DNA of 32,000 nucleotides, from positions 30,001-62,000 of the forward strand of contig JAFGBS010000009.1 of assembly GCA_016933055.1 (NCBI GenBank), written 5' to 3'. Below the pieces are notes generated by a model. It had not been told where the DNA came from, searched no databases, and saw only the letters and a program-made list of their open reading frames with translations. A program made the translations under genes and the position numbers. The stretch is from Promethearchaeota archaeon. GTDB taxonomy: Archaea > Asgardarchaeota > Lokiarchaeia > Sigyniarchaeales > Promethearchaeaceae. The first letter of the stretch is position 1. Every line of letters starts with the position of its first letter. Below are positions 1 to 25,502 of the stretch, in pieces.

Positions 1-669
1 TCGAAAATCATATAATAGCAGGCACAAGTCGTTAGTCGTCTAAAACTCATTCTTTCCCTTTTTTTCAGTCCAAAACCATCCATTATAAGGGTTGAACCAC
101 AGTCACGTTAAGGAAATGCCGAATTTGAAAATAAATACAATTAATCTCTCAAATATTGATATTTTCTTTCCTCATAACATCACGACAGTAAAACCTATTT
201 TTTCTGATTAAGGTTGTTGTACGTAGTAATTGAAAATGTTTTTTTCTCCTTATAATACAGGTACTGATATTCTTATCCTTCGCATAGATATATGTTGATT
301 AAAAATTATCCTCTCATTTGTTTACTGATTATTCGGTTAACGAGCTAAAATGTTTTGATGAGGAGAATATATTAACTATCTCACCATCGTTCTATCGTGC
401 ATTTCTAGGTTCAAAAAAAGAAGAAAATTGTTGATAGAAGAGAATCATTATTTTGATTAGTCAACATGTGTCGTTCGATTTAAATCATTTTTCCTCATTC
501 AACACATGTTAAAGGGGTAACAGTATAGTTCGAATAGGCAACTATATAATATTAAACGGTTCGTGCGGGTAGGTAGTACGGATAAAGCCTCATATCCATA
601 GAATTAAAAACGTAATCAAAAATGCACAATCACTTCACAGATATTGATTTATAAAAAGAAAGAAACCAT

Positions 670-6664: not shown

Positions 6665-7459
6665 ATGATTTATTACCCATGTCTTAGAATACAACATATG
6701 GAACGTCTAAATAAGGTCTTCATCTCTTATTCCTACAAGGATGAGATTGCGAGGAGTGAACTTATTTCGAAACTGAATGGTAGGGGCATTAATCCCTATG
6801 TTTTTCCTCCCATTACAGTATCTCCCAATAGATTGAATAGTAATGATCTGATTGAATCCATCCTTCACCATGACAGTATGATTTATATTAAAGGAGAATA
6901 TTCCGATAAATCGTTTTGGGTAGTATTTGAACGAGATTATGCTATGAGAGCACATAAAGAAGTATATTCCTTTGATCCGAGTACTATGAAAATCGAAAAA
7001 TCTCGGCTACCACTACTCGACCTTCCAATTTTTCCCTGTTACATCCATGAAGATTACAAGAAAATTGAGGCAGTATTTGAATTTATGAGAAGGAGGTACA
7101 TCGACTTGGAGACTTTGCACGAGAAATTTTCACCTAAATTGCAGATCGGAGATAGTTTAGCGAATTTTGTTTACAATATACTTCGTAGTGGAAATTACAT
7201 CATATTTTTCTTAACTTCTCATATTCGATCTGAAATGGTAAGTGAAATGAGTAATGTAATGGAATCTCGTCCCGAAAGGATTCTGTTTGCCTTGTTAGAT
7301 AAAGATGCCATTAAAACAATACCAAGCAATCTTCCACCACAAAAAATACTAACGATACCATTATATGGAGACAATATCAGGTCCGAAAAAACACGCTGGC
7401 ATGACCTTATTGTGATGATATATTGGTTGATTCTCCGAAATGCTTACGAATTAGTGTAA
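6665..7459 (+). CDS. TIR-domain protein (TIR_2-like, probably tandem TIR-TIR)
   Basis: KVFISYSYKD...SDKSFWVVFERDYA is the TIR bA and aC with the catalytic Glu. A second block IFPCYIHED...YIIFFLTS...EMVSEM looks like a degenerate second TIR. Alternative start ATG at 6698. Confidence 0.78.
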   Translation: MIYYPCLRIQHMERLNKVFISYSYKDEIARSELISKLNGRGINPYVFPPITVSPNRLNSNDLIESILHHDSMIYIKGEYSDKSFWVVFERDYAMRAHKEVYSFDPSTMKIEKSRLPLLDLPIFPCYIHEDYKKIEAVFEFMRRRYIDLETLHEKFSPKLQIGDSLANFVYNILRSGNYIIFFLTSHIRSEMVSEMSNVMESRPERILFALLDKDAIKTIPSNLPPQKILTIPLYGDNIRSEKTRWHDLIVMIYWLILRNAYELV

Positions 7460-8536: not shown

Positions 8537-9145
8537 TTGGAAAATTATCTGTTTAAAATCCTTTTAGGGGGGTGCGTTGGTCGCCAACGAACGGAGATTA
8601 TGAAACAATTTACTACCGGACGGTTTCATCCGGATACTAGTTTTATAATTGGGGTCGATTTTGCGGTGCACTTTTTAGACCTACCGGAGAAAGAGGGGGC
8701 AGTTACGCTTCAGATCTGGGATTTCGGTGAAGAAAAGCGGTTTCGCACTTTAGTTTCCTGTTTTTGCCAGGGTGCCGCAGGAGCAATGCTATTTTTTGAT
8801 CTACATGACCAAGATACACTTTATGATTTGGAAGAATGGATTCACCTTATTAGGAAATATACACACAACATCCCAATTATTTTGTGTGGTGTAAACTGTA
8901 AAGAAACAACAAAATCAGAACAACAATCAAATTTAGATGAACTTGACAGAATAAATGAGGAAGATATCCACGATTTCTTGAATAAACATCATTTTCGCGG
9001 ATATTATGATATCCATATGGAATCCGGTCGGAATATTACGGAATCTTTTGAGTATTTATCCGCGCTGATGGTGCAACAGTGGCCATCCTCGGTGCTGAAT
9101 CAAAGCACTCGAATCGAAACATTGTTACCGAATCAAATTCGGTAA
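8537..9145 (+). CDS. Rab-like small GTPase with degenerate nucleotide-binding motifs
   Basis: YLFKILLGG, IGVDF, VTLQIWDFG, RFRTL, GAAGAMLFFDL, LEEWI, IPIILCG and NITESFEYL are clear Rab-like segments. G1 reads GCVGRQRT and G4 reads GVNCKE. TTG start with GGAG (8524-8527) upstream. Confidence 0.85.
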   Translation: MENYLFKILLGGCVGRQRTEIMKQFTTGRFHPDTSFIIGVDFAVHFLDLPEKEGAVTLQIWDFGEEKRFRTLVSCFCQGAAGAMLFFDLHDQDTLYDLEEWIHLIRKYTHNIPIILCGVNCKETTKSEQQSNLDELDRINEEDIHDFLNKHHFRGYYDIHMESGRNITESFEYLSALMVQQWPSSVLNQSTRIETLLPNQIR

Positions 9146-10818: not shown

Positions 10819-12027
10819 TTAAAATAATCCTAATGGAATCCCAATTGCTGCGATTGCGATTGCCACTGCGAGAAAAATTAACGCTGCTTTTATAGTAGAA
10901 AACGATTTCTTCTTCTTATACAACCACAATACGAGAAGTGAAGTGTAGGTCAGTAGTAGTACGAGCATAATGAAATTGCCCCAAATTTCTATACCTAAAT
11001 CTACTCCGATTGTCATATCCAATAAAAAGATCGGCAACTCTGAAATGAAATATACAAAAAATGGATACATTCCGAAGGCTCTTAAATATTTTAACTCCCA
11101 GTTTAGTTTGCGATCCATTAATGAGAAAATGAACAGACCAAAACACGTCACTCCAATTGATATCAAATTATGGGCAAAGGACACTTGACGTTTCGATGCC
11201 TCCCATCCTGGGATAAAATTAATTCCAATCCCGATCCCATAGTTAATGAGGGCAAAAATAAGCAAATTCCAATATTTCATTGATTCTTTTTTTGTTGGAT
11301 CTACCAAATAATCCCCAACTGCACTGGCGATAATGCTAATGGAAGCATACCCAAAAATGGATCCAAAAATCCCTCCATGACTGGATAATATTGCATAGTC
11401 CTTAAAAAAGGTCGTTACCATTAAAATCTGATAAATTAACCCCCATCCATAACCTACTATTAGTCGATATAATGGATTTCTGATTGAGATAAATAAAAAC
11501 GCTATAAGACCAGCAACTGCTATAGAAGGCAGTACATCCCATCCGATAATGATATATTCATACCCCAAGACGTAATCATACCTTACTTTATAAAGTCCTT
11601 GGTCGACTACTACAATCAGCGCCCCTAACACAAATAATACTCCATACCGGATGAGTACATGCATAATCGCCTTATTTTTTCCCTTCTCTTCTACCCGTCT
11701 ACGATAGGCAACATTCAAGAGGATTCCCAAAATAAAAATAAAAGCTGCGGCACCCACGTCATATAGTGTCATATACGTCGCACCTCTAGGTGCGTGGTCA
11801 AATATATAATGGAGAATTATACTGAAATCTGCTTCTTTCCAGACTTCTGGGGGAAAAACTAGCGTTATAACCAAGTATAGAACAATGAATCCACGACCTT
11901 GATCGATAAATCTCAATCTTTTATGTTCGCGTTCGGTATCTAACTGGTCTGGCACGTTTACTTCAGCATTTGAATTTTTTTTTTCTAGTGTCATTATTTT
12001 CACATTCTTTGAGTAATGGAAAATCAT
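10819..12027 (-). CDS. HGSNAT/NagX-like (DUF5009/DUF1624 clan) multi-pass membrane acetyltransferase
   Basis: RLRFIDQGRG and HAP...TLYDVGAAAFIFILG (cf. HGSNAT R..SLD.FRG and H..W.G.T.AD.VFP.F.FI.G), VL..IA, many TM helices. Alternative start ATG at 11994. Confidence 0.75.
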   Translation of the reverse strand: MIFHYSKNVKIMTLEKKNSNAEVNVPDQLDTEREHKRLRFIDQGRGFIVLYLVITLVFPPEVWKEADFSIILHYIFDHAPRGATYMTLYDVGAAAFIFILGILLNVAYRRRVEEKGKNKAIMHVLIRYGVLFVLGALIVVVDQGLYKVRYDYVLGYEYIIIGWDVLPSIAVAGLIAFLFISIRNPLYRLIVGYGWGLIYQILMVTTFFKDYAILSSHGGIFGSIFGYASISIIASAVGDYLVDPTKKESMKYWNLLIFALINYGIGIGINFIPGWEASKRQVSFAHNLISIGVTCFGLFIFSLMDRKLNWELKYLRAFGMYPFFVYFISELPIFLLDMTIGVDLGIEIWGNFIMLVLLLTYTSLLVLWLYKKKKSFSTIKAALIFLAVAIAIAAIGIPLGLF

Positions 12028-12178
12028 ACGATCTTTTGTGAATCGAATATATAATGATTTAGTTCAGAACCAGAAAAAATTGTATTGGAGTGATTTTATT
12101 AATTAACTGTTGGTTTTTGGAATACCTAATATAGACCCCGTAATTAATTTGAATCAACCTTTAATTTGGGGTGTCGGA

Positions 12179-13123
12179 ATGAATACTGTATTCGAAATTC
12201 AGCAAGTTTCCAAACAATATCGAGACCTTATAGCATTAGATAATATTTCTCTTGATATTAACCAAGGAGAAATTCTTGGATATATAGGTCCGAATGGTGC
12301 TGGTAAAACAACTACAATTAAAATTTTAGTCGGATTGATTAAACAGTATCAAGGATCGGTATTATACCAAGGTAAAAATATCAAAACTTCTGAAATTTCT
12401 AGTTTGTTGCATAAAGAACTTGGATATTTACCGCAAGAAGTAGATTTTCAACAATGGAGGACCGTAAAACATGCCCTTACAACATTTGGATTACTTTCTG
12501 GAATACCCAGAGAGATTTTAAATGACTCCATCGTATCTACACTAAAGCTTGTGGGATTATCTGACGTAGAAAATAAAAAAATTGTTCATTTGTCTGGTGG
12601 GATGAAGCAGAAACTGAAATTGGCACAAGCGTTAATGCATAATCCGAAATTTTTGATCTTAGATGAACCGATGTCGGGATTAGACCCAAGTTTCCGCTAT
12701 CAAGTAAAAAATATAATTAAAATCCTTCATCAACAAGGAATCACGATCTTTTTATCATCGCACATTTTAAGTGATATCGAAAATTTAGCAACCCGAATTG
12801 CAATCATCCATCAAGGGAAAATAAAGAAAATTGGAACTCCTTCGGAGCTAAGTGAAGAATTTCGCATTGGGAATGACATTGAAATAATGTATATAAAAGG
12901 AAGTCCCCAGATACGGAAAGATGATTTAAACTGTATTCAATCGATAACCCAAGAATCTGGGATCAATCATATAATCCATAGTAGCCCTGAGGTAGAGACC
13001 GATGAATGCATAAAGATATTACTTCGCTACATTTTGGACAATGGAATCAAAATAAGAACGCTCTCTCTCAGAGAACCCGATTTAGAAGATGTATATTTAC
13101 ATTACGTAAGGGAGGCGTACTAA
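12179..13123 (+). CDS. ABC-2 type exporter ATP-binding subunit
   Basis: Walker A GPNGAGKTT, Q-loop YLPQ, signature LSGGMKQK, Walker B LILDEP, H-loop SSH. ATG at 12179 preferred over the longer ORF start at 12110. Confidence 0.95.
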   Translation: MNTVFEIQQVSKQYRDLIALDNISLDINQGEILGYIGPNGAGKTTTIKILVGLIKQYQGSVLYQGKNIKTSEISSLLHKELGYLPQEVDFQQWRTVKHALTTFGLLSGIPREILNDSIVSTLKLVGLSDVENKKIVHLSGGMKQKLKLAQALMHNPKFLILDEPMSGLDPSFRYQVKNIIKILHQQGITIFLSSHILSDIENLATRIAIIHQGKIKKIGTPSELSEEFRIGNDIEIMYIKGSPQIRKDDLNCIQSITQESGINHIIHSSPEVETDECIKILLRYILDNGIKIRTLSLREPDLEDVYLHYVREAY

Positions 13124-13800
13124 TGATGGGTAAATCAAAACTGGGATTATTATATTTAGATGAGTTGAAAGGGTACTATAAGTCGAAATTAATGCTTGTA
13201 TTATGGATCGGGCTGCCCCTTCTTTCATTTCTTATGCAATATTTGCAACCAAATGCCGAGGAGATCCCCTTATCGATATTCGTTGCCATTTTAGTAGGTT
13301 CTATCGGAGGAACACTCTCTTCAGTATTAATCAGCACGACGATTACTAGTGAACGCAATCGCAATGTATATGACTTATTTCTGATTCGACCCGTTAAACG
13401 CTGGGAAATTATAATTGCAAAGTATTTTGCAGTTCTCACGTGTTTATTATTCGCCGTGGTGATAAGCGTAGTAATGGGAATTATCGTGGATATAATAAAA
13501 ATTGGAACACCTATATCAGAATTACTTAAAATTAATGCACAGAGTTTAATTGTGGCGTTTATGTCAATCTGTATAGCATGCTCAATCGGAATTTTCTTCG
13601 GTATAATAATCAATTCTGTTGCAGTTTCTGCAGTATTATCGGTATATCTCGGAAATCAAATATCTGCAATCGTTATATTACCAACGGTCTTGATTCCCGA
13701 AATTAACGTCATATTTTATGCAATTCTAGTGGGAGTAGGAGTGAGCATATTGATTCTAGCAATATCCATTATTATATTCTCGAAAAAGTCTCAATACTAA
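13123..13800 (+). CDS. ABC-2 type exporter permease
   Basis: About six TM helices with the SER...YDLFLIRPVKRWEIIIAKY motif. TAATG stop/start overlap and GGAGG at 13111-13115. Confidence 0.9.
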   Translation: MMGKSKLGLLYLDELKGYYKSKLMLVLWIGLPLLSFLMQYLQPNAEEIPLSIFVAILVGSIGGTLSSVLISTTITSERNRNVYDLFLIRPVKRWEIIIAKYFAVLTCLLFAVVISVVMGIIVDIIKIGTPISELLKINAQSLIVAFMSICIACSIGIFFGIIINSVAVSAVLSVYLGNQISAIVILPTVLIPEINVIFYAILVGVGVSILILAISIIIFSKKSQY

Positions 13801-13995
13801 TTTATTTTCTTTACCTAAATTTAGTTTCTCCGTATGTCATTAACAAGAAAGTTCCAGAATAGCTAGATTTTCTTGAAACATAGTGTACTTATAGTCGATC
13901 CTATCGTGAATATTTGATGGAATTGTTGGGAACTGTTCAAAACTTAATATAAAACGGTAGATCAACTTTGTTGTAAGAATGAAAAAAAGAGAAAC

Positions 13996-15690
13996 TTAAA
14001 AATCAAATCTGTCGACGGGCTGGATATTCATATCAGAGCCTATTTCTTCGTATGCGATTACAGGAAGTTTAGGTAACAAAGATGCAATTAATGTTCGAAC
14101 TTTGTGACGGATATCTCCATTCGTTATTATCGTTGCTTTTACTGCATTTATTGGATCGCCGATTTTATTGATAAAGGCTTTTAGTAATTTTAAACGCATA
14201 TTCTCGTCAATGACTGCAGTTTCATTAATCGCTTTTTCCAGTTTATCATTTAATAAGTAACAGACAAGGCTTTTTCGATCCATTCCCCTTCCATAGGTCC
14301 AAGATATGAATAGTTGTTGAGATATTCGTAACTCCTTGACGATTTCTGAGATGTAGATATTAGGATTACTCGAGTAGAATTCCTTTATGTTTCGTAATTC
14401 AATGATCTTTTCCAACAGTGCGGGTAAATTCCGAATAGAAAGCTCCTCTTCCAGAAAAGATCTTAATATACACGTTAGTTCGGCCATGGAGTACTGTTGT
14501 TCCACTGCTTTAATTAGAAAGGGATATTGTTGTTTCAACTTATTAAGGAGAATATTAGTAGTCTCTATAGAGAGAAACATACAGGCATTCCCTCGAATCA
14601 AGGCAGATAATGCCAAAAATAGATATTGAGTTGTATTCCAAGTAACTAATCCTGCCCTCTCGCAAAATCCCACGGATTCGGACTCCGTAATAATTGCTTG
14701 TTCGGAATAATTCGCCGGATTAAATGCTTTTCTCCCTTGAACTCCAATTAGCTTAAGACGATCTACTGTATCATTCACAAGGTATTCATTTTCTCCCATC
14801 ATTTTGAGGGGAAGGAAACGTAAATCATTTATTTTAAACCTACACTCCCATTCTCGCAATCGATAATCCAAAGAAATCTCGGGTTTGGGAAGAAATAATC
14901 CCAATTCATAAAATAAACCTTCTAATGTCATGGCAATTCCATCATTGAATGTATCGATTTTAGTTACAGGATGCTTGTTTGAGGTTGCTTGTTCTCTTTT
15001 CTCTTCTTCCTCCTCATATTTTCGGTACATTTCGTCATTCAGAAGAATCTCAATATTGATATTATCCATTGAAAACGCATTTTCATGGTAGAATAAAGGT
15101 ATTGGGTTTTCTACATCGTCATATTTTGAAATTTCTTCAATATATCTGTTAATTGATATACCATGGCGAATACAAGATTCTAAAGCTTCATGAAACTGCG
15201 ACTTCGAATATTGTTTTAGAATATCTCCATGAAGGCTTGACCAAGATTCCAAGATTAAAGCGGAAAGAGATTCAGTCAATAAAATTTGACGATTTTCAAG
15301 GATTCCCTTAGATATTTTGATAGCGAGTTCATTTCCCTCGGTAATTTTCTCGTGTGGTTCGTCTAATCGATAAATAACGCGCTTATGGTTTACATAGGTA
15401 ATATAGGGAACTCCCAACATCTCGATTTTTTCATCTGCAACTGTAACATCCAAGGAAATTTCGAATGGTAATGCCAAATCTCTGACAATTCCTTCGATGA
15501 ATAAATGTAATTTCTGGTGAAATTCTTGATGTTCTTCCTTCCCGAGGGTAGCAAAATTCTTCAATGAGGAATCTAATTTCACTTCTATCAGAATACTATC
15601 CGATTTTTGCTGTTCCGTTGGGGGAGATGATTTGATCTCTCTCTCGGAGGGGATTTTATCCAAATTCGTTTTCTCCTCAGACAATTTCAA
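13996..15690 (-). CDS. Soluble FHIPEP (FlhA/SctV cytoplasmic domain) protein; degenerate N-terminal copy plus full C-terminal copy
   Basis: LFYELGLFLPKPEI, RFKIND, NPAN, ILRSFLEEELSIRNLPALLE, IRHKVRTLI...LPVIAYEEIGSDMNIQPV match the FlhA/LcrD C-domain. No TM segments. The start may be TTG at 15684 (AGGAG 9 nt upstream). Confidence 0.88.
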   Translation of the reverse strand: MKLSEEKTNLDKIPSEREIKSSPPTEQQKSDSILIEVKLDSSLKNFATLGKEEHQEFHQKLHLFIEGIVRDLALPFEISLDVTVADEKIEMLGVPYITYVNHKRVIYRLDEPHEKITEGNELAIKISKGILENRQILLTESLSALILESWSSLHGDILKQYSKSQFHEALESCIRHGISINRYIEEISKYDDVENPIPLFYHENAFSMDNINIEILLNDEMYRKYEEEEEKREQATSNKHPVTKIDTFNDGIAMTLEGLFYELGLFLPKPEISLDYRLREWECRFKINDLRFLPLKMMGENEYLVNDTVDRLKLIGVQGRKAFNPANYSEQAIITESESVGFCERAGLVTWNTTQYLFLALSALIRGNACMFLSIETTNILLNKLKQQYPFLIKAVEQQYSMAELTCILRSFLEEELSIRNLPALLEKIIELRNIKEFYSSNPNIYISEIVKELRISQQLFISWTYGRGMDRKSLVCYLLNDKLEKAINETAVIDENMRLKLLKAFINKIGDPINAVKATIITNGDIRHKVRTLIASLLPKLPVIAYEEIGSDMNIQPVDRFDF

Positions 15691-17683
15691 TCTCTCCTTT
15701 TATTCGATTTAGTAAAAATCGCTGCAATTCATTGCGAGACAAGCAAGGGATTTTAAATTCTATATTAATTAATTCTTGTGTAAATTCGCGGATTGAGGGA
15801 TTTTTCACCGCAATAGCCATATCCTTATATTGAGTAGAATATTCACGTATTTTGGACAGAATATTCACCACAGCGCTTGGATCCATATCCAAAATTTTTT
15901 GATATCCCGCATCCTTTATCGAATTCTTGATCTTCTCTTCGATTTTATCACCCAATTGGAATATTTGAAAATTTTCGTCATTGCCTGGTAGAACATTGCG
16001 AATACTCGGTAATAAGCGCATGTTCTGGTAAGTTTCTGTAAGATCTTTATTCTCAGATAAGCAAGTATTAAATTCTTGAACTATTGCCTCAAGTGAAGTG
16101 ATCGGAATTTTGTCTTTCACCAATTTTCGTAGTATTTGCGTAAATGCACTCAGATTCTTTTCTTCTATCTCAAATGTTGCTACTCCATAAAGGATATTCT
16201 TAACGAAATCATGCCCAACAAAATCTCCCAGATGTTCTTCAATAATGGGTCGAATTGCATTCATTAAAGATTTGATGATCATTGTTTCGTTCTTATTCAC
16301 TGAACCTTTTCCTACTTGAACTTCATCTACTAAGACCGTAAAGTCCTGCGGTCCTAGATTGTTGTTATCTCGGAATCGGATTCCCGGTATTTTCACTCCA
16401 TAAGTATTAAGTATTCTTTTCCGGATTTCTTCGACTTCTTCTAATGTTTCTTTACGGAGGTCATTAGAAGAAGGGACGATTATCGCATTCATTATATCAC
16501 TACCAATTTCTACTGCAAGGGGATTGACTCTTGGAATTTTATCCGCAATCTCTTCCCCATATTTTGAAAGACTCTTCATCCGATCATAATTCTCCTTATA
16601 GATTTTTTTATCGGGATTCAGTTTGTAGGCTTCTTTGAAGTACTGTAAAGCTTGATCAAAGGATATTCTCTGTGTCTGCTTTTTGGTTACCTCTTTTGCC
16701 GAATCCGTTACTTTTAAGTCTTCTTTCTTTTCCCATCCTTGGGCTGATTTGAAGTAAAATTCTGCCACTTCTTCACTATAATTGTCTTTTTCCTCAGGAG
16801 TCATTTTATTCAGTTCTTGGATAGCACGAGAATGTTTTTTCTGTTCAACAAACACCTTTGCAACTTCTAGTTTATGGTTGATATCGTCGTAAGCGGGTAC
16901 CAGATCATATATATCTTCAGTATAAGCATAATGTCCCGTTATGAGTACAAGTTCCTTTGGATCAATACTGGGGTCTTCTTTTAATACATCTTTCCACCCC
17001 TCTAATTTTCCCACTTCTTGAAAATCTTCGGTAGAAAGATCTAACATCATTTGTCCCTTGACCTCCTTTTGGCGTAAAAAACCGATTTGTACCCTGAAAC
17101 AATACGTACCATGCCCGTGAATCGTTATTGGGAAAATATATTTTCTTCCTTCACCTTGTTTGTAGCGATATTCTAAAATATCCCTACTTCGATATTGCCA
17201 GTGGCTTTGATTACAATTCCCATCATATCTTACTATCTTCTCTCCCTCTTTTTCACTGGAAAACGGAGTTAATAGAGCCTTTCCTTCTAAGGATGGATTA
17301 TAGGTGACATTGGGTAGAGTTTTTTTATTATATTCTAATTTTTGGCGGAAAAAGATGGTGTAACTTTCCTCTTTCTCGAACAACAAGGTGGGTCTTTCAG
17401 TTTCGCTTTTGGGACGGTATTGCCATAAATTGATAATAAACCATGACGGTATTGTCATAATTTTACCGGCATTTTGTAAGTCAATTGTTAAAAATAAAAT
17501 TCGATCATAGCCTGTTTTTTTTATTTCTGTTGAGAGTTTAATCTCCATGGTAGGAATCCATTTTCCAAATAATTCCTCTTCCTCTTTTTGTGCTAATTTT
17601 GCAAGGCGTAGGGATGCTAGAGCAATGGCAAGACTGGCAGTTGCTACTAGAATTTCGGAAATTGTTGCAATATCCACTGCCAT
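15677..17683 (-). CDS. Membrane-anchored fusion: single TM + beta-sandwich-like domain + TPR-like repeats + FHIPEP (FlhA/SctV C-terminal) domain
   Basis: N-terminal hydrophobic helix ILVATASLAIALASL. TPR-like FDQALQYFKEAYKLNP. VNPLAVEIG, IRKRILNTYGVKIPGIRFRDN, ILRKLVKDKIPITSL, IRE..IPCLSRNEL are FHIPEP hallmarks. AGGAGG lies upstream of the ATG. Confidence 0.88.
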   Translation of the reverse strand: MAVDIATISEILVATASLAIALASLRLAKLAQKEEEELFGKWIPTMEIKLSTEIKKTGYDRILFLTIDLQNAGKIMTIPSWFIINLWQYRPKSETERPTLLFEKEESYTIFFRQKLEYNKKTLPNVTYNPSLEGKALLTPFSSEKEGEKIVRYDGNCNQSHWQYRSRDILEYRYKQGEGRKYIFPITIHGHGTYCFRVQIGFLRQKEVKGQMMLDLSTEDFQEVGKLEGWKDVLKEDPSIDPKELVLITGHYAYTEDIYDLVPAYDDINHKLEVAKVFVEQKKHSRAIQELNKMTPEEKDNYSEEVAEFYFKSAQGWEKKEDLKVTDSAKEVTKKQTQRISFDQALQYFKEAYKLNPDKKIYKENYDRMKSLSKYGEEIADKIPRVNPLAVEIGSDIMNAIIVPSSNDLRKETLEEVEEIRKRILNTYGVKIPGIRFRDNNNLGPQDFTVLVDEVQVGKGSVNKNETMIIKSLMNAIRPIIEEHLGDFVGHDFVKNILYGVATFEIEEKNLSAFTQILRKLVKDKIPITSLEAIVQEFNTCLSENKDLTETYQNMRLLPSIRNVLPGNDENFQIFQLGDKIEEKIKNSIKDAGYQKILDMDPSAVVNILSKIREYSTQYKDMAIAVKNPSIREFTQELINIEFKIPCLSRNELQRFLLNRIKGEIEIV

Positions 17684-18162
17684 TATTTTTTAACCTCCTT
17701 TTTTTGTTGTGCTGCAAGCAGTAACTTCGCACGGTCTAACCACGGACTCGGAGTATTTAAATTTGGATTGGTGAGTATTTCTTCTAAATTCTTTATGGCA
17801 TCTTTTTCTTTTTCGCTCATAATCAGGCATTCAGAACGGTACACATGACTTACGATGTCTCTCGAATCATTCGCCAACGCCATATCATACCCGGCAATTG
17901 CTTCCTCGTAATTCTCCATTTGTTGATTAACTGCACCGTAAGCCCTCCAATAATGATTAGTATATGGAGCAATAGTAGTGAGAAGAATGAAGATATCTTT
18001 GGCTGCCTTGTAGTTACCGATAGTGAATTGGTTGTATCCTAGTGCATAGAGGTCCTCGCACTCTGCATCACTGGGGTTGTTTTTTTGTTTTAGACGGATT
18101 AAACCATCATAATATCCATGAATTAGATATTCAAGATATTTACCCGTCGTTTTTTCTATCAT
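17683..18162 (-). CDS. LcrH/SycD-family (class II T3SS chaperone-like) TPR protein
   Basis: EDLYALGYNQF..GNY..A..IF.LL....PY...YW.AYGA..QQM.NY.EAI..Y..A...D.......Y.SECL matches the SycD/LcrH/IpgC pattern and size (159 aa). Stop overlaps the next ATG (TAATG). Confidence 0.8.
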   Translation of the reverse strand: MIEKTTGKYLEYLIHGYYDGLIRLKQKNNPSDAECEDLYALGYNQFTIGNYKAAKDIFILLTTIAPYTNHYWRAYGAVNQQMENYEEAIAGYDMALANDSRDIVSHVYRSECLIMSEKEKDAIKNLEEILTNPNLNTPSPWLDRAKLLLAAQQKKEVKK

Positions 18163-18184
18163 GAAAACCGCATTGGTTTTTGGA

Positions 18185-18200
18185 TTTATAAAAGTTCTCC
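18185..18200 (-). promoter_or_regulatory. Archaeal BRE/TATA promoter of the lcrH-FHIPEP operon (probably near-leaderless mRNA)
   Basis: Minus strand reads GGAGAAC-TTTTATAAA; the TATA element ends 23 nt upstream of the ATG at 18162. Confidence 0.55.
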
Positions 18201-18277
18201 TAGTTCTATATTGGGTAGAAAATAAGCACTGAACCGAAGTAAGATCTAAGAATCCCTTTATCTGATACTAAATTTGT

Positions 18278-19096
18278 TTAGATAGTTACACTGACCATTA
18301 AACCCCGATGATCGGATGAAGAACGGTTCCATACTAAATCTGCGGTGTGTTTTACCACGGTACATAAATGGTTAATCCATATGTAGTCAATTCGTAAGAA
18401 AGGGAAACATACATGCCAGGTTTTTCCCAGAAACGGGGTTTTACCGGATGCAATCCAAGCATCTTGCAAGTGGGAAAACAAGCTCCAATAGCTAATATCT
18501 ATTAAATAATTAGGAGTATTGAAGTCTCCCAGAAGTATTAGCGGTTTTGAATAATCAATAATATCCAATATTGATTGAACATGCTGGAATCTCCGGACAT
18601 ACCTTAATGGAATGTCTAAATGTGAGTTTATCACATTAATTAGTGTTCCATTGATATCTAGTTCTGCGATAAGGATTCCACGTGACAATACCTCATCCTC
18701 CCTAATCGTAATGAAATTTGTGCTCGTGATGTTATATCGAGATAATATAATTAATCCATAATCCCAGACGTTAAGTTCTGAGGGGATCGCAACATACTCA
18801 TAGGAGAGTGCTGAAGCATATTCAGCTATGCTGAGAGCGCGCTCATTCGCGATAATATTCGTTACCTCTTGTAAGGCTACAATGTCTGCATCTACTTGGG
18901 TAATAAGGTCCATAGTTGCATCATTCGACCCAAACTGCACATTATATGTAAAAATTTTCACTGAATTAGTCATATCTCTCGTTGTGGAAACGGACAGATT
19001 AAAAAAGACAGGGATCAAAATGTGGATTATATAGATTGATAAAAGAATGGTCAATGTATATGCCGCTTTTTTCCATTTTTCAGCTATAAATTTCAT
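18278..19096 (-). CDS. Endonuclease/exonuclease/phosphatase (EEP) family protein with N-terminal TM anchor
   Basis: TYNV, DIVALQEV, NSHL, LLGDFN, RIDYIW, SSDH catalytic motifs. ATG at 19096 preferred over TTG at 19108. Confidence 0.93.
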   Translation of the reverse strand: MKFIAEKWKKAAYTLTILLSIYIIHILIPVFFNLSVSTTRDMTNSVKIFTYNVQFGSNDATMDLITQVDADIVALQEVTNIIANERALSIAEYASALSYEYVAIPSELNVWDYGLIILSRYNITSTNFITIREDEVLSRGILIAELDINGTLINVINSHLDIPLRYVRRFQHVQSILDIIDYSKPLILLGDFNTPNYLIDISYWSLFSHLQDAWIASGKTPFLGKTWHVCFPFLRIDYIWINHLCTVVKHTADLVWNRSSSDHRGLMVSVTI

Positions 19097-19142
19097 GAGA
19101 CAACTCAAAGACAGTAAAATGTGCCCTAATATGTTTGGGTTA

Positions 19143-19225
19143 GATGTGAAAAAAGTGGGATGTGAAAAATGGGGGGTTTTTTATTAATGGTGTGCTAAAC
19201 AAAAAAAGAGGAATCTCACATCCCA
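19143..19225. repeat. GATGTGA motif cluster (direct plus inverted repeat) in a divergent promoter region
   Basis: GATGTGAAAAA at 19143-19153 and 19159-19169; TGGGATGTGA (19156-19165) / TCACATCCCA (19216-19225). Confidence 0.5.
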
Positions 19226-19336
19226 GAGAACGATATCATTTAAAGTATAAAAAGACTAAGTGTGGAGCTAAAAAGCAATACTTAAGACTGTGAGACGCCA
19301 TTTTTATTTCAACAAATATATAAAAAGAATTGGAAC

Positions 19337-19471
19337 ATGTCCCAATTTAAAAAGAAACCTGAGAGAAAACCGGATAAAAAAAATCTCGGATTTTTCATGG
19401 TGAATGATGTAGATAAAGCGCTTCGAGACGTCAAACGTAAAGAAGCTGAATACGAAGATGATGAAGATTAA
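19337..19471 (+). CDS. Small 44-aa charged protein (not in the supplied ORF track)
   Basis: MSQFKKKPERKPDKKNLGFFMVNDVDKALRDVKRKEAEYEDDED*. ATG start, protein-like composition, fills an otherwise empty gap. Confidence 0.5.
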   Translation: MSQFKKKPERKPDKKNLGFFMVNDVDKALRDVKRKEAEYEDDED

Positions 19472-19567
19472 GATCCAAGCTTATATCAAAATCAAGTATT
19501 TTTGTTCTTTTTTTTAGAAACATTTCCAAAGGATTCATTCATAGGAGTAATGCGGTTTTTTATTCCT

Positions 19568-20038
19568 ATGGAATTACTTGGTTTCTTGGTCTTTACAGAA
19601 AGTTATCATAATTCGAAACGCATGTTTAAGTTAGTATCCCGATTCCCCCCGTTTAATCCCGATAATCGAGATACCTTACATTATTTAGAACTTACCGTTA
19701 GAGAATTTTTACTACAATCCCACCCAATAACTCAGTATTGGACATGGCATCGTGGAGGGAGAGATGTCTATGGAGCCGTATCATTCTGCTCGGGAATTAA
19801 TCAATATTTGGTTATGTGTTTCGGTTCAACTTCTGAATATTATTTAGAGAACTCTCTTTTAACCCTACAGAAATATTTAGAGGATAATAAAATGCAGGAA
19901 AGATTATTGAATAGCCTATTTTCATTAGATGCTGAACTACCACTTAGGATTTTAAGGGAGTTTTCAACCCAGATTTCTCAATTACTGAAATTACGTAATG
20001 CTAAATATTATTCCAATGATACTGTTTTTATCCCGTAG
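19568..20038 (+). CDS. Longin/uDENN-like fold protein (putative)
   Basis: b-b-a-b-b-b-a pattern: LLGFLVF / KLVSRFPP / helix / YWTW / RDVYGAVSF / YLVMCFGS / helix, resembling uDENN segments. ATG at 19568 preferred over the TTG-type start at 19502. Confidence 0.5.
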   Translation: MELLGFLVFTESYHNSKRMFKLVSRFPPFNPDNRDTLHYLELTVREFLLQSHPITQYWTWHRGGRDVYGAVSFCSGINQYLVMCFGSTSEYYLENSLLTLQKYLEDNKMQERLLNSLFSLDAELPLRILREFSTQISQLLKLRNAKYYSNDTVFIP

Positions 20039-22241: not shown

Positions 22242-23663
22242 TTATTTTACATAGGATACCATTTCAACGTCCCATAGGGAACCCCTTAATCCAATTGGGT
22301 CCTTCCAATCCCGTTTTCGACCTGCTTTCGGAATCTTCAATAGACTGAGGAAGAATTCGAAAGATCCGTATCCTCGTGCAATGCGATCCCATGCAAATAG
22401 TCCGAAAGTCCAAATCAGCATCAAAATTGCAACAGTAATCCATGTCCACATTGCATTAAGACCATATCTCGAGATAAAATCTGCACCAGCTCCGCTGGGT
22501 ACGATCACACTCATAAGGAATCGCAAAATGAAATCTAAGATACCTAAGAAATACACAGTAAGTGCAAAAACTCCAAATCTCCGAATCCATCGGGTTCCTT
22601 TCAACCATCTTTGTTCATTAATACGAGGATTAAATTCCACCCAGCTTAATAAAGCTAAAATTAATGGAGCTTGCAACCCAAAAGAGACAAAAGCAAACCA
22701 TCGTGGATGAATGTGAAAACCCAAATCTAATGCGGCTCCATTCAAGAATCCTCCATCATGGATGAACAAAAATTCTGCAGCCCCCCAAATCACTGCTAGT
22801 AAACTCGGAAGGCACATCCAACGTAGATGTTTTCTTTTGGGTTCATCTTGAAGAATGACATATGCAATCCCTGCACCAAAGAAATAGGATGCCATCATTG
22901 GAAAAAGAGGCGCTTCTCTACCGGAAATCCAGTTCATTGCGACACGATACATAACTAAACCGAAATTATTGAAGAAATCCCCTAGTGTGGTAAATACATC
23001 GTGGAAATATACACCTGGTGAAACAGCTCGGAAACCCTCGAGCATGGTAATATCAATTCCCACAACATTTGTGGCCCAATCTCCGACGATCGGACTGATT
23101 GCAATAATTACTATTCCAATTACATAACAAACCGCCATCTTGATCATCCAACTGTATTTTCCTTTGAATAATTGGAATAATAGGAAGAAAAAGGATGTAA
23201 CAATCATCATTAATCCAATAGATTCAATTGCCTCAATTAAAAAGAACATATCCCAATGACTTGCCCAGATGTCAGAAATCGGAACCGAACCGATAGGAAT
23301 TTGTCGAGACCAAATCTCAACAAAACCCCAGTACGGGAACACAGTTACCCAGAGTTTGCCTACTAATATCAAAATTAATCCAGCAAATAATTGTTTTCCC
23401 CAAACTCCCCAAAGATTTTTCCCATTTTTAACGGCATTTTCCAACTGATAAAAATTAACAACAGCACTTATCATTAAAAAGAAACCTCTCCAGTGGATAA
23501 AGATGAATATAAACGCAGCTAATAAAATCAGTCCTATATTACCAGAACCTAGAATAGAATTAGGGTCGGAAAATTTATCCCAAGATGTAAAGAGAAAGTG
23601 AAACATTGCTGTAAAAAAGATGGCAATACCTCTCCAAAAATCCAAACTTGTTAATCGTTTCAT
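22242..23663 (-). CDS. HGSNAT/DUF1624-like multi-pass membrane acyltransferase
   Basis: KRLTSLDFWRGIAI, FFLMISA, IEAIESIG, PLFP, RRFG.FALTVY, GSFE motifs; about 11-12 TM. Confidence 0.75.
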   Translation of the reverse strand: MKRLTSLDFWRGIAIFFTAMFHFLFTSWDKFSDPNSILGSGNIGLILLAAFIFIFIHWRGFFLMISAVVNFYQLENAVKNGKNLWGVWGKQLFAGLILILVGKLWVTVFPYWGFVEIWSRQIPIGSVPISDIWASHWDMFFLIEAIESIGLMMIVTSFFFLLFQLFKGKYSWMIKMAVCYVIGIVIIAISPIVGDWATNVVGIDITMLEGFRAVSPGVYFHDVFTTLGDFFNNFGLVMYRVAMNWISGREAPLFPMMASYFFGAGIAYVILQDEPKRKHLRWMCLPSLLAVIWGAAEFLFIHDGGFLNGAALDLGFHIHPRWFAFVSFGLQAPLILALLSWVEFNPRINEQRWLKGTRWIRRFGVFALTVYFLGILDFILRFLMSVIVPSGAGADFISRYGLNAMWTWITVAILMLIWTFGLFAWDRIARGYGSFEFFLSLLKIPKAGRKRDWKDPIGLRGSLWDVEMVSYVK

Positions 23664-23831
23664 GAAAAATCACTAAATTAATTTTCTCATATATCTCTAC
23701 TTGTTCTTAACGGTAGTTATTCCTATCTTATCCAATTAGTATTAAAAGATTGTGTTTGGTTACATTGGAATGAGGGGATTTTCTATGGAATACTATTTTT
23801 ATGCATCCATGGGAGGAAAACGGAATGCATA

Positions 23832-25502
23832 TTAAGCAACCGCTTCGATTAATTCTCTTCCTATTTTGGGATGAGTCTTATGCTCAATAAAAAAATACGG
23901 TGTGACATCATATAATGATTTAAGAACATTAATACGAGAAAAAGTAACATTTTTCCACGCGGTTTTTATTCGAGACGTGAAAACAGTTAATCCTTCCAAA
24001 GTGATTTTTTTGTTAGATTTCCTGCTTTTAATTATCCAAACGAATACATCAACTATCGCAATAGTTATACTGAAAATAGTAGACAGTACCTTTGTGATGA
24101 AGATTATCAACCATTCAAAACTCAAGAAATAGTTGTTCTGCCGTGCTATTTCCTGCGCTTTTTTGAATGTTATTTGCTTTCGGAATTTAGGGAATAACGC
24201 AAGAATGGGAACAATGGGTAGTAAGATAATTACGATCAGAAATCCGCTATTTTCCCAAATCCTTAATATTATATCAAAATAAAATGCTGCAACTACCATT
24301 AAAATGCATGACCATAACATGGTCTGCCTTCCGTGATTGATGAAATCTAAGCCGGTAAATATTGTAAATAATTTACGAGGGTAGATATCTAACAATTGCA
24401 ACATGTATACAGTTAATGCAAGCAATCCCCAGCGACGTAAAAAAGTGGTTGCTTCTGCATAGCGATATAAATTTGCTGATTTTCGGAATTCAAATAACCG
24501 CATAAGTAAAAATACATATAACAAGTACAAACCTTGATTGATTAGGAGAAACCAGACGGGAGATACGCGGAACCACATATTAAAAGAGAGGTGTTCCACA
24601 AACACCCAGTAGTGTACTCCTGTTAAAATAAATCCTAATGCAACTAAACATCCCCTTCTGGCTATGCGTTTATCGGTATTTGGTTGGGTTAACCGATGTC
24701 CAATAATGCAACCGATACACACACAAAAGAAATTTGGAAAGATGGGTTCTTCAAGACCTGCGATAGCATACCATAACAGACGCATGAATTTCTCTTTTTC
24801 ATTAGAGAAACCATTAAAATATCCTCCTAGAGTAATATCCCATCCCACGATTTCACTTAATTTTACTTGCACGAACGGTGTTGCAAATAAGAAGAAAAAA
24901 CCTAACAAGGTGAGTGTTGTATAAAACAGGAAATTTTTATTGTATGGTTTCATGTTACGGATTTTTATGAACAAATAATTTATTATAGTCAAGAAAATTA
25001 CGGCTAATCCGATTACCTGCAAAGTTTCGAATAAATACAATCCTTTCCATTGAGATTGGATCAAAGCAGATAACAGTCCATCGGGATCATACCCTGCCCA
25101 TATCCGAATCGGATATTGATAAAATACACCATGCCAAGGATTAAAAAAACTCTCCCGTAGTAATCCTAACCCGTACATCAGGATTCCTTTTACGAAATTT
25201 TTCACTAACAGATTTTCTGGATTCCTTCCTCTTTCAACAGATTTAATGAAATTAAACTGGTGAATTATTGCAGATAAAAACAAAAATAGTGAGCGGGAAT
25301 GCCCTAACGTGAACAGCAGAACTCCGATTATTATTACAAAGATGCTTATTTCAGACAACTCGAGATTATGAAAAGTGGTTAAATCCATCACATTTGTCCA
25401 TGTGTGAATAATTGTCATAAAAAATATCGAAATACCTCGTAGCACATCGATCGTGAGAAATCGAGTACCCCTTCCCACTTTTGTCTGAAGATTGCTCTCC
25501 AT
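23832..25502 (-). CDS. HGSNAT/DUF1624-like multi-pass membrane acyltransferase (tandem paralog)
   Basis: RFLTIDVLRGISI, LFLFLSA, FETLQVIG, PIFP, RRWG.LALTVY, LSFEW; colinear with 22242-23663. Confidence 0.75.
   Translation of the reverse strand: MESNLQTKVGRGTRFLTIDVLRGISIFFMTIIHTWTNVMDLTTFHNLELSEISIFVIIIGVLLFTLGHSRSLFLFLSAIIHQFNFIKSVERGRNPENLLVKNFVKGILMYGLGLLRESFFNPWHGVFYQYPIRIWAGYDPDGLLSALIQSQWKGLYLFETLQVIGLAVIFLTIINYLFIKIRNMKPYNKNFLFYTTLTLLGFFFLFATPFVQVKLSEIVGWDITLGGYFNGFSNEKEKFMRLLWYAIAGLEEPIFPNFFCVCIGCIIGHRLTQPNTDKRIARRGCLVALGFILTGVHYWVFVEHLSFNMWFRVSPVWFLLINQGLYLLYVFLLMRLFEFRKSANLYRYAEATTFLRRWGLLALTVYMLQLLDIYPRKLFTIFTGLDFINHGRQTMLWSCILMVVAAFYFDIILRIWENSGFLIVIILLPIVPILALFPKFRKQITFKKAQEIARQNNYFLSFEWLIIFITKVLSTIFSITIAIVDVFVWIIKSRKSNKKITLEGLTVFTSRIKTAWKNVTFSRINVLKSLYDVTPYFFIEHKTHPKIGRELIEAVA

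Follow-up and report, generated by a model that had tools for sequence, protein, structure and literature searches.

A type III secretion chaperone relative and two gate-less SctV/FlhA paralogues in an overlapping gene trio of an Asgard archaeon

What role could an archaeon have for genes that resemble a chaperone and the export gate of a type III secretion system (T3SS)? The question is raised by a stretch of 32,000 nucleotides from a Promethearchaeota genome (positions 30001-62000 of the 819-kb contig C17, hereafter the window; the assembly holds 3.76 Mb in 36 contigs and is 91% complete with 3.3% contamination), where an earlier note had singled out three genes as an archaeal exaptation of secretion parts. 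The first gene encodes P0001, a SycD/LcrH-like tetratricopeptide repeat (TPR) protein, and the second and third encode P0002 and P0003, which are related to the cytoplasmic domain of the gate protein SctV/FlhA (the FHIPEP family) and are referred to as A and B, respectively. The domain identities, the placement of A and B in two paralogue clades, the archaeal host, purifying selection and the absence of the other T3SS core genes that were searched for are established, and the parts of the trio are T3SS-derived. As for its function, we hold it an even chance that the trio is a horizontally acquired, domesticated bacterial A/B module that acts as a membrane-tethered ring scaffold with a TPR adaptor, serving signalling or conflict and not secretion.

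The relationship of P0003 to export gates is seen at the levels of sequence and predicted structure. P0003 scores 94.9 bits against PF00771 over residues 248-554 (cut-off 29.1), and its AlphaFold2 (AF2) model, computed from an 83-row alignment, reaches a pLDDT of 89.8 and a pTM of 0.89. Residues 209-564 of the model superpose on the cytoplasmic domain (SctV-C) of CdsV (6wa6) with a Z of 28.4 and an rmsd of 2.4 over 327 residues at 22% identity, on that of YscV (7alw) with a Z of 26.4 and on that of FlhA with a Z of 25; MxiA and SsaV also superpose, and a Foldseek comparison of the model with SctV-C structures gives E 3e-20. The C-terminal half of P0003 thus has the complete set of four subdomains, SD1-SD4. 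It is also the one unit, among the three SctV-C units of the trio, that retains SD2, with the motifs LVNDT, NPAN and GL(V/T)TW in common with the SctV of Myxococcota; the SD3 motif EE(L/I)SIRNL, likewise shared with Myxococcota SctV, is present in B and changed in A.

The earlier note had described P0003 as a soluble double-FHIPEP protein. Its solubility stands, since no transmembrane (TM) helix is found by hydropathy, and so does one complete SctV-C; the second copy, however, is only a degenerate unit of SD1 and SD3. The N-terminal half appears in the model as an alpha/beta unit followed by a helical bundle, and an hhalign comparison of the N-half and C-half profiles of the family gives 88.5% probability (E 2.7e-6) with a single large gap that lies exactly over SD2. 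The N-half profile, built from 83 family members, matches P0003 with E 4e-44 and has weak matches to canonical SctV-C too. In the model, P0003 is therefore laid out as SD1'-SD3' followed by SD1-SD2-SD3-SD4, or about 1.5 FHIPEP units, with an N half without SD2 or SD4.

The A-type protein, P0002, scores 89.5 bits against PF00771 (same cut-off), aligning with profile positions ~309-657 only, which correspond to the linker and the cytoplasmic domain; its residues 362-472 match positions 320-426 of the TIGR01398 profile. It retains the linker, SD1, SD3 and SD4, and a deletion of about 55 residues, common to P0002 and its orthologue, spans SD2 exactly. Hydropathy picks out one hydrophobic helix, which spans residues 5-27 with a KD19 peak of 1.99 at residue 5, and by the positive-inside rule most of the protein is predicted to be cytoplasmic. 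The description of P0002 as a TM-anchored TPR-FHIPEP fusion holds for the helix and the FHIPEP domain and is less secure for the TPR call, where the matches are weak (E 0.004-0.05). Residues 35-265 match beta-sandwich domains of a structure atlas with TM scores of 0.34-0.51, which are weak leads only.

Neither protein has the gate itself. The gate domain of about eight TM helices and the FHIPEP loop were not found in P0002 or P0003, whose alignments begin at profile positions ~309-355, and the equivalog models TIGR01398 and TIGR01399 gave 109.6 and 73.3 bits, short of their cut-offs of 692 and 772. The profile coverage and hydropathy thus agree with the claim that both FHIPEP proteins lack the channel. 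Compared with canonical SctV/FlhA (CdsV 6wa6, YscV 7alw/7qij), the trio is alike in the four-subdomain fold of P0003 and in the linker, SD1, SD3 and SD4 of P0002; it differs in having two gate-less paralogues rather than one, in the loss of SD2 from the one and the extra degenerate unit in the other, and in its archaeal host. FHIPEP is present in the genome at this locus only. The expectation that no other T3SS genes would accompany it was confirmed across the 91%-complete genome for SctR, SctT, SctU, SctQ and SctJ (PF00813, PF01311, PF01312, PF01052 and PF01514), for which profile searches gave no match while their controls were positive; SctS, SctN and SctC were not part of this search.

The archaea did not invent the trio. 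When P0003 was combined with three relatives into a profile, the search gave 904 cluster representatives with E<1e-30; nearly all of the top 150 among them are either TM-less proteins 530-600 aa long or giants that reach 1300-2000 aa. The exaptation proposed in the earlier note was therefore not borne out as an archaeal event, because the trio belongs to this large bacterial family of gate-less A/B proteins. Among genomes chosen to represent their species, homologues without TM helices were seen in Acidobacteriota, Chloroflexota, Cyanobacteria, Planctomycetota, Bacteroidota, Smithella and others, as well as in Heimdallarchaeota YT1_002; the canonical gates that come closest are SctV proteins of Myxococcota with 715 aa, at ~34% identity. 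A typical locus consists of a long TPR-FHIPEP protein (A) followed by a protein of 550-600 aa (B).

The phylogeny that had been suggested as a check separates the SctV-C units into paralogue clades A and B, each with an SH-aLRT of 100 and each with archaeal and bacterial members, and places P0002 in clade A and P0003 in clade B (trees rooted on Myxococcota SctV only). In both clades, the sequences of the window, of a related Promethearchaeota contig (L005), of the Heimdallarchaeota YT1_002 locus (L009), of locus L007 and of an Asgard fragment stand together beside Pyrinomonadaceae with moderate support (84-96). Like its bacterial counterparts, the trio has adjacent, co-directional genes from both clades in the order A then B, and P0003 carries the degenerate N-terminal unit that is specific to the B proteins of the family. 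It departs from them in its host, in the TM helix and the domain at residues 35-265 that stand in A where the bacterial proteins have a long TPR array, in the deletion of SD2 from A, in the absence from the genome of two frequent partners of the family described below, and in a separate SycD-like gene. One Pyrinomonadaceae metagenome-assembled genome (DASVGE010000407; L010:4737-9020) encodes a 1428-aa fusion in which A occupies residues 720-1031 and B residues 1083-1422, and this natural fusion argues that A and B interact physically or act together.

Within the phylum, FHIPEP scores over the cut-off in 4 of 400 genomes, two of the four hits being fragments at contig ends, and in 2 of 61 genomes of a sample of the order and family. 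A genome of the same family has a fragment of 57-70 aa at a contig end (G008:C176:135-278) that resembles the extreme C-terminus of FlhA/SctV and is too short to classify. Because this presence is sporadic and nested within bacterial diversity, the trio was probably acquired from bacteria, a direction that we infer from the sequences.

A bacterial origin of the genes raises the possibility that assembly or binning had put a bacterial fragment into an archaeal genome. The relatives of all three genes are mostly bacterial, and in the read check, where the stretch was not covered by contigs of the source run, the junctions were not bridged. The trio nevertheless sits 44 kb into the contig, and the genome has an archaeal small-subunit rRNA (1461 bits) and 54 Ras-family matches, of which 14 are on C17, on both sides of the trio, and one is within the window (8537-9145, plus strand; a Ras/Roc-family small GTPase of a kind typical of Asgard archaea); a TFB gene is also on C17. 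The GC content of the trio, overall and at third codon positions (GC3), equals that of its flanks. Furthermore, in L005 (from JGI, independently assembled), a trio 55-70% identical to that of the window is flanked by the same neighbours, themselves 70-77% identical: a gene of 112 aa, one for an FAD oxidoreductase (77%) and one of 165/178 aa (72%). In a second, independent hot-spring metagenome (run X2), short contigs are identical to the trio and to its flanks (window 11757-20006); this strain, or one very near to it, seems not to be confined to the source sediment sample. The host is an archaeon, as the earlier note had supposed, namely an Asgard archaeon that is probably of the Lokiarchaeia type, and the evidence speaks against a chimeric contig; we regard an assembly or binning artefact as very improbable, the least likely of the explanations considered.

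The same comparisons bear on whether the trio is a functionless relic of the bacterial transfer, decaying or neutrally kept. Such a relic would fit the small number of genomes with FHIPEP in the phylum, the loss of partner genes and the deletion of SD2 in A. Against it, the three frames are intact in two lineages although synonymous sites between the window and L005 are saturated; dN/dS is at most 0.18 in all three genes, which are under purifying selection; the overlapping starts and stops are retained; the composition is fully ameliorated; and copies of the SycD-like protein from Loki and Heimdall share 50-66% identity. Given the synteny with L005, the flank-like GC and GC3 and the low dN/dS, a chimera or a relic is unlikely, and the relic in particular is very improbable.

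For P0001, the reading of the first gene as an LcrH/SycD-like TPR protein was upheld. The TIGR02552 model (LcrH_SycD) matches residues 22-137 over its positions 5-120 with E 1e-24 and 86.8 bits, under the cut-off of 104.8; it is by far the best match, all other TPR families giving E>1e-4. A sequence search of solved structures returned SycD (4e-9), PcrH, a Chlamydia SycD, AcrH and IpgC as best matches, and residues 28-156 align with residues 14-144 of SycD (2vgx/2vgy). P0001 is thus alike to the class II chaperones SycD/LcrH, PcrH, IpgC and AcrH in being a protein of ~160 aa that is all TPR over its full length and aligns end to end with SycD; it differs from them in its sub-cut-off score, in standing where no translocator genes or T3SS were found, and in having orphans as nearest relatives. 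Neither hydrophobic translocator clients nor T3SS families appear among the family matches of the window proteins, and the genome scan with TIGR02552 yields one strong SycD-like gene only (86.1 bits, again short of the cut-off).

More than 200 relatives share 50-56% identity with P0001, and many are Myxococcota proteins to which the name SycD/LcrH chaperone has been given. Three of these were inspected (L097:10001-10510 and two further contigs, all annotated SycD/LcrH, 50-54% identity to P0001); they are orphans beside rsmE and outside T3SS clusters, and one of the three shares its assembly with a canonical SctV locus. Their neighbourhood is conserved and includes rsmE, an RDD protein and glmS/glmU. 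In the tree, the SycD-like copies that are linked to A/B modules fall outside the compact Myxococcota clade. An origin of P0001 from the TPR array of A was considered and rejected, as the A arrays match at E 1e-3 to 1e-4, compared with the 50-56% identity of the free SycD-like proteins.

The linkage of a SycD-like gene to the A-B pair recurs outside the window. Across 24 TM-less loci, comprising species representatives and direct look-ups of P0003 relatives, a close SycD-like copy (E<1e-40) lies beside A-B in L005, L007 and L009 only; these module-linked copies from Loki and Heimdall are 50-66% identical to P0001, as against 25-33% for A and B at the same loci. A chaperone-based search added the A-B-chaperone loci L098-L100 (58% GC), L101 and L102, and the B of L098 belongs to a different B subclade from the archaeal B. 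The same trio, for which the earlier note had suggested a search, is found elsewhere; most relatives stand without a SycD-like gene. Because the linkage recurs in two B subclades, a functional pairing of the SycD-like gene with A-B is favoured, in line with the earlier argument for a pairing of chaperone and export-gate domain. As a side observation, the locus of L102 has, at a distance of 2 kb, a gene for a 223-aa protein whose HEPN-like matches are weak (E 2.5e-4) and fall short of the cut-off (L102:3173-3844, minus strand).

Further partners point to a role. A CHAT (caspase-like) protease is encoded directly upstream of A-B in 9 of the 24 TM-less loci, including the Heimdall locus, and is often preceded by a 355-aa protein without a Pfam family. 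The fullest version, in Heimdallarchaeota YT1_002 (L009:575-5119), runs on one strand from an Exo_endo_phos (EEP) protein of 346 aa through a 190-aa protein, the 355-aa protein and the CHAT protease to A (931 aa), B (543 aa) and the SycD-like protein (161 aa). That bacterial and Heimdall relatives adjoin CHAT proteases suggests a signalling or conflict scaffold, and of the functions guessed in the earlier note this context speaks for that one more than for a cargo-sorting platform.

A mechanism can be proposed on this basis. In export gates, SD3/SD4 form a nonameric ring and the cleft that separates SD2 from SD4 docks chaperone:substrate complexes, including those of the TPR chaperone YscY (PMC9163089). 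In the archaeon, the N-terminal helix of A would anchor the protein beneath the membrane, and A would co-assemble with soluble B into a hetero-oligomeric ring of the SctV-C type, in which B alone would offer the cleft that serves as docking site in export gates. P0001 is proposed to dock there as an adaptor for a peptide client, because B alone retains the SD2-SD4 cleft and its motifs are conserved. Complex predictions of P0003 with P0001 gave 0.14, 0.57 and 0.07 in three runs, a median of 0.14 for a mark of 0.32, and are counted neither in favour of docking nor against it. With no channel, ATPase or needle, the assembly would export no proteins and would most likely serve signalling or conflict, as a scaffold for assembly or sensing. 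The relatives probably control CHAT proteases with the same scaffold; in this lineage, the protease would be gone, and the neighbouring membrane EEP enzyme may be a weak candidate for the output.

The same parts could instead make up a cargo-sorting platform, the idea put first in the earlier note, in which a tethered ring and a SycD-like chaperone would, as a minimal device related to secretion, hand hydrophobic clients to an archaeal translocon of the Sec or YidC kind or insert them into the membrane. The homology of P0001 to class II chaperones fits this, as do the TM helix, which would give the ring the position beneath the membrane that it has in FlhA, the motifs of the SD2-SD4 cleft conserved in B, and the presence of two membrane-anchored proteins, P0002 and the EEP enzyme, in or beside the operon. 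The tether, however, is confined to the lineage of the window and L005 and is missing from A in L007, in L009 and in the bacteria; no gene for a translocator-like or other client is conserved beside the trio; the relatives are linked to CHAT proteases and not to transport genes; and no PxLxxP-type chaperone-binding motif was found in P0002 or P0003. We consider cargo sorting improbable.

Several results also weigh against the signalling or conflict scaffold. The AF2 model of P0002, from a four-row alignment, has a pLDDT of 43 and is unusable, and thus lends no support to ring formation by an A unit without SD2. The orphan Myxococcota relatives of P0001 give no clue to its function, and most bacterial A/B loci are without a SycD-like gene. 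Profiles of the CHAT protease and the 355-aa protein found no homologue in this genome (best E 0.068; positive controls E<1e-130), so that the case for a conflict system would draw on the relatives. The direct neighbours of the trio are an ABC transporter, a fumarase and an FAD oxidoreductase, with no obvious defence island in the window, and in a PADLOC scan neither the trio nor the genes around it matched a defence family, except for a weak generic TPR match.

The arrangement of the genes is compact (Table 1). As had been described, three genes lie on the same strand and overlap at both junctions. Genes 1 and 2 meet in TAATG, where one nucleotide is common to the TAA of gene 1 and the ATG of gene 2, with AAGGAGGT upstream; genes 2 and 3 overlap by 8 nt (TTGTCTGA) if gene 3 starts at the TTG at 15684, as in the 562-aa protein on record, or by 14 nt with another TTG. 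Read from these junctions, the trio is translationally coupled.

Table 1. Features of the trio and its surroundings (nucleotide positions refer to the window; residue numbers refer to the protein named)
Feature	Position	Strand	Length	Remarks
Gene 1 (P0001), SycD/LcrH-like TPR protein	17683..18162	-	159 aa	First gene of the operon
Gene 2 (P0002), A-type gate-less SctV/FlhA protein	15677..17683	-	668 aa	
Gene 3 (P0003), B-type gate-less SctV/FlhA protein	13996..15690	-	562-564 aa	
P0002, TM helix	residues 5-27			
P0002, domain	residues ~35-265			
P0002, weak TPR-like helices	residues ~270-375			
P0002, linker and SD2-less SctV-C	residues ~362-668			
P0003, disordered tail	residues 1-30			
P0003, degenerate SD1'+SD3'	residues ~30-208			
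P0003, complete SctV-C (SD1-SD4)	residues 209-564			
TATA-like box TTTATAAAT, candidate archaeal promoter	18184..18193	-		~22 nt 5' of the gene 1 ATG; read from the sequence
T-rich run, candidate archaeal terminator	13981..13995	-		Directly after the gene 3 stop; read from the sequence
Membrane-anchored Exo_endo_phos (EEP) enzyme	18278..19108	-		PF03372 E 3e-20; TM anchor KD19 2.3

The EEP gene lies upstream of the trio in the window, and its orthologue in L005 (61% identity) is found directly downstream of the trio; since it stands at opposite ends in the two, the adjacency has survived a rearrangement. The EEP enzyme was considered as a conserved effector and not upheld: the Heimdall EEP is distant from that of the window (E 0.35) and no close relative, a jackhmmer search found no EEP in other family loci, and the link is weak. 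Other genes of the surroundings were noted. At a distance of 6.5 kb from the trio, a TIR_2 domain (E 3e-8) occurs in a protein of 264 aa (window 6665-7459, plus strand), and two large ORFs of 473 and 556 aa without a Pfam match lie at 22242-25502 (minus strand). In L005, a 1313-aa TIR-TPR protein (L005:1007-4948) is encoded between the 112-aa gene and the FAD oxidoreductase, where the window has no gene of this kind.

Parts of T3SS are usually seen as strictly bacterial and as strictly tied to secretion or flagella. Here, a ring domain and a relative of class II chaperones are under purifying selection in an Asgard archaeon without the rest of the machine. A literature search, which did not cover subscription journals, found neither gate-less FHIPEP pairs nor archaeal genes derived from T3SS described in a paper, and no account of this trio or of the family, which has hundreds of representatives. 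What is new in the present case is the Asgard host, the membrane-tethered A without SD2, the fact that the protease was lost and the recurrence of a SycD-like gene as third member. The finding also calls for caution, as an annotation of FHIPEP or SycD/LcrH alone is no proof of a secretion system in a metagenome.

The family is a tractable case of a component of a large machine that was repurposed, probably as a scaffold for cell-death or immunity enzymes, and the archaeal variant indicates that the module works across domains and without its usual protease. A more specific proposal, which we put forward tentatively and think rather unlikely as it stands, is that the A/B ring and its SycD-like adaptor form an 'apoptosome-like' sensor or scaffold that crossed from bacteria to Asgard archaea, where it was tethered to the membrane, stripped of its protease and given a new output. 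If true, the docking of chaperones on the T3SS gate would be reusable as a signalling switch outside of secretion, in archaea.

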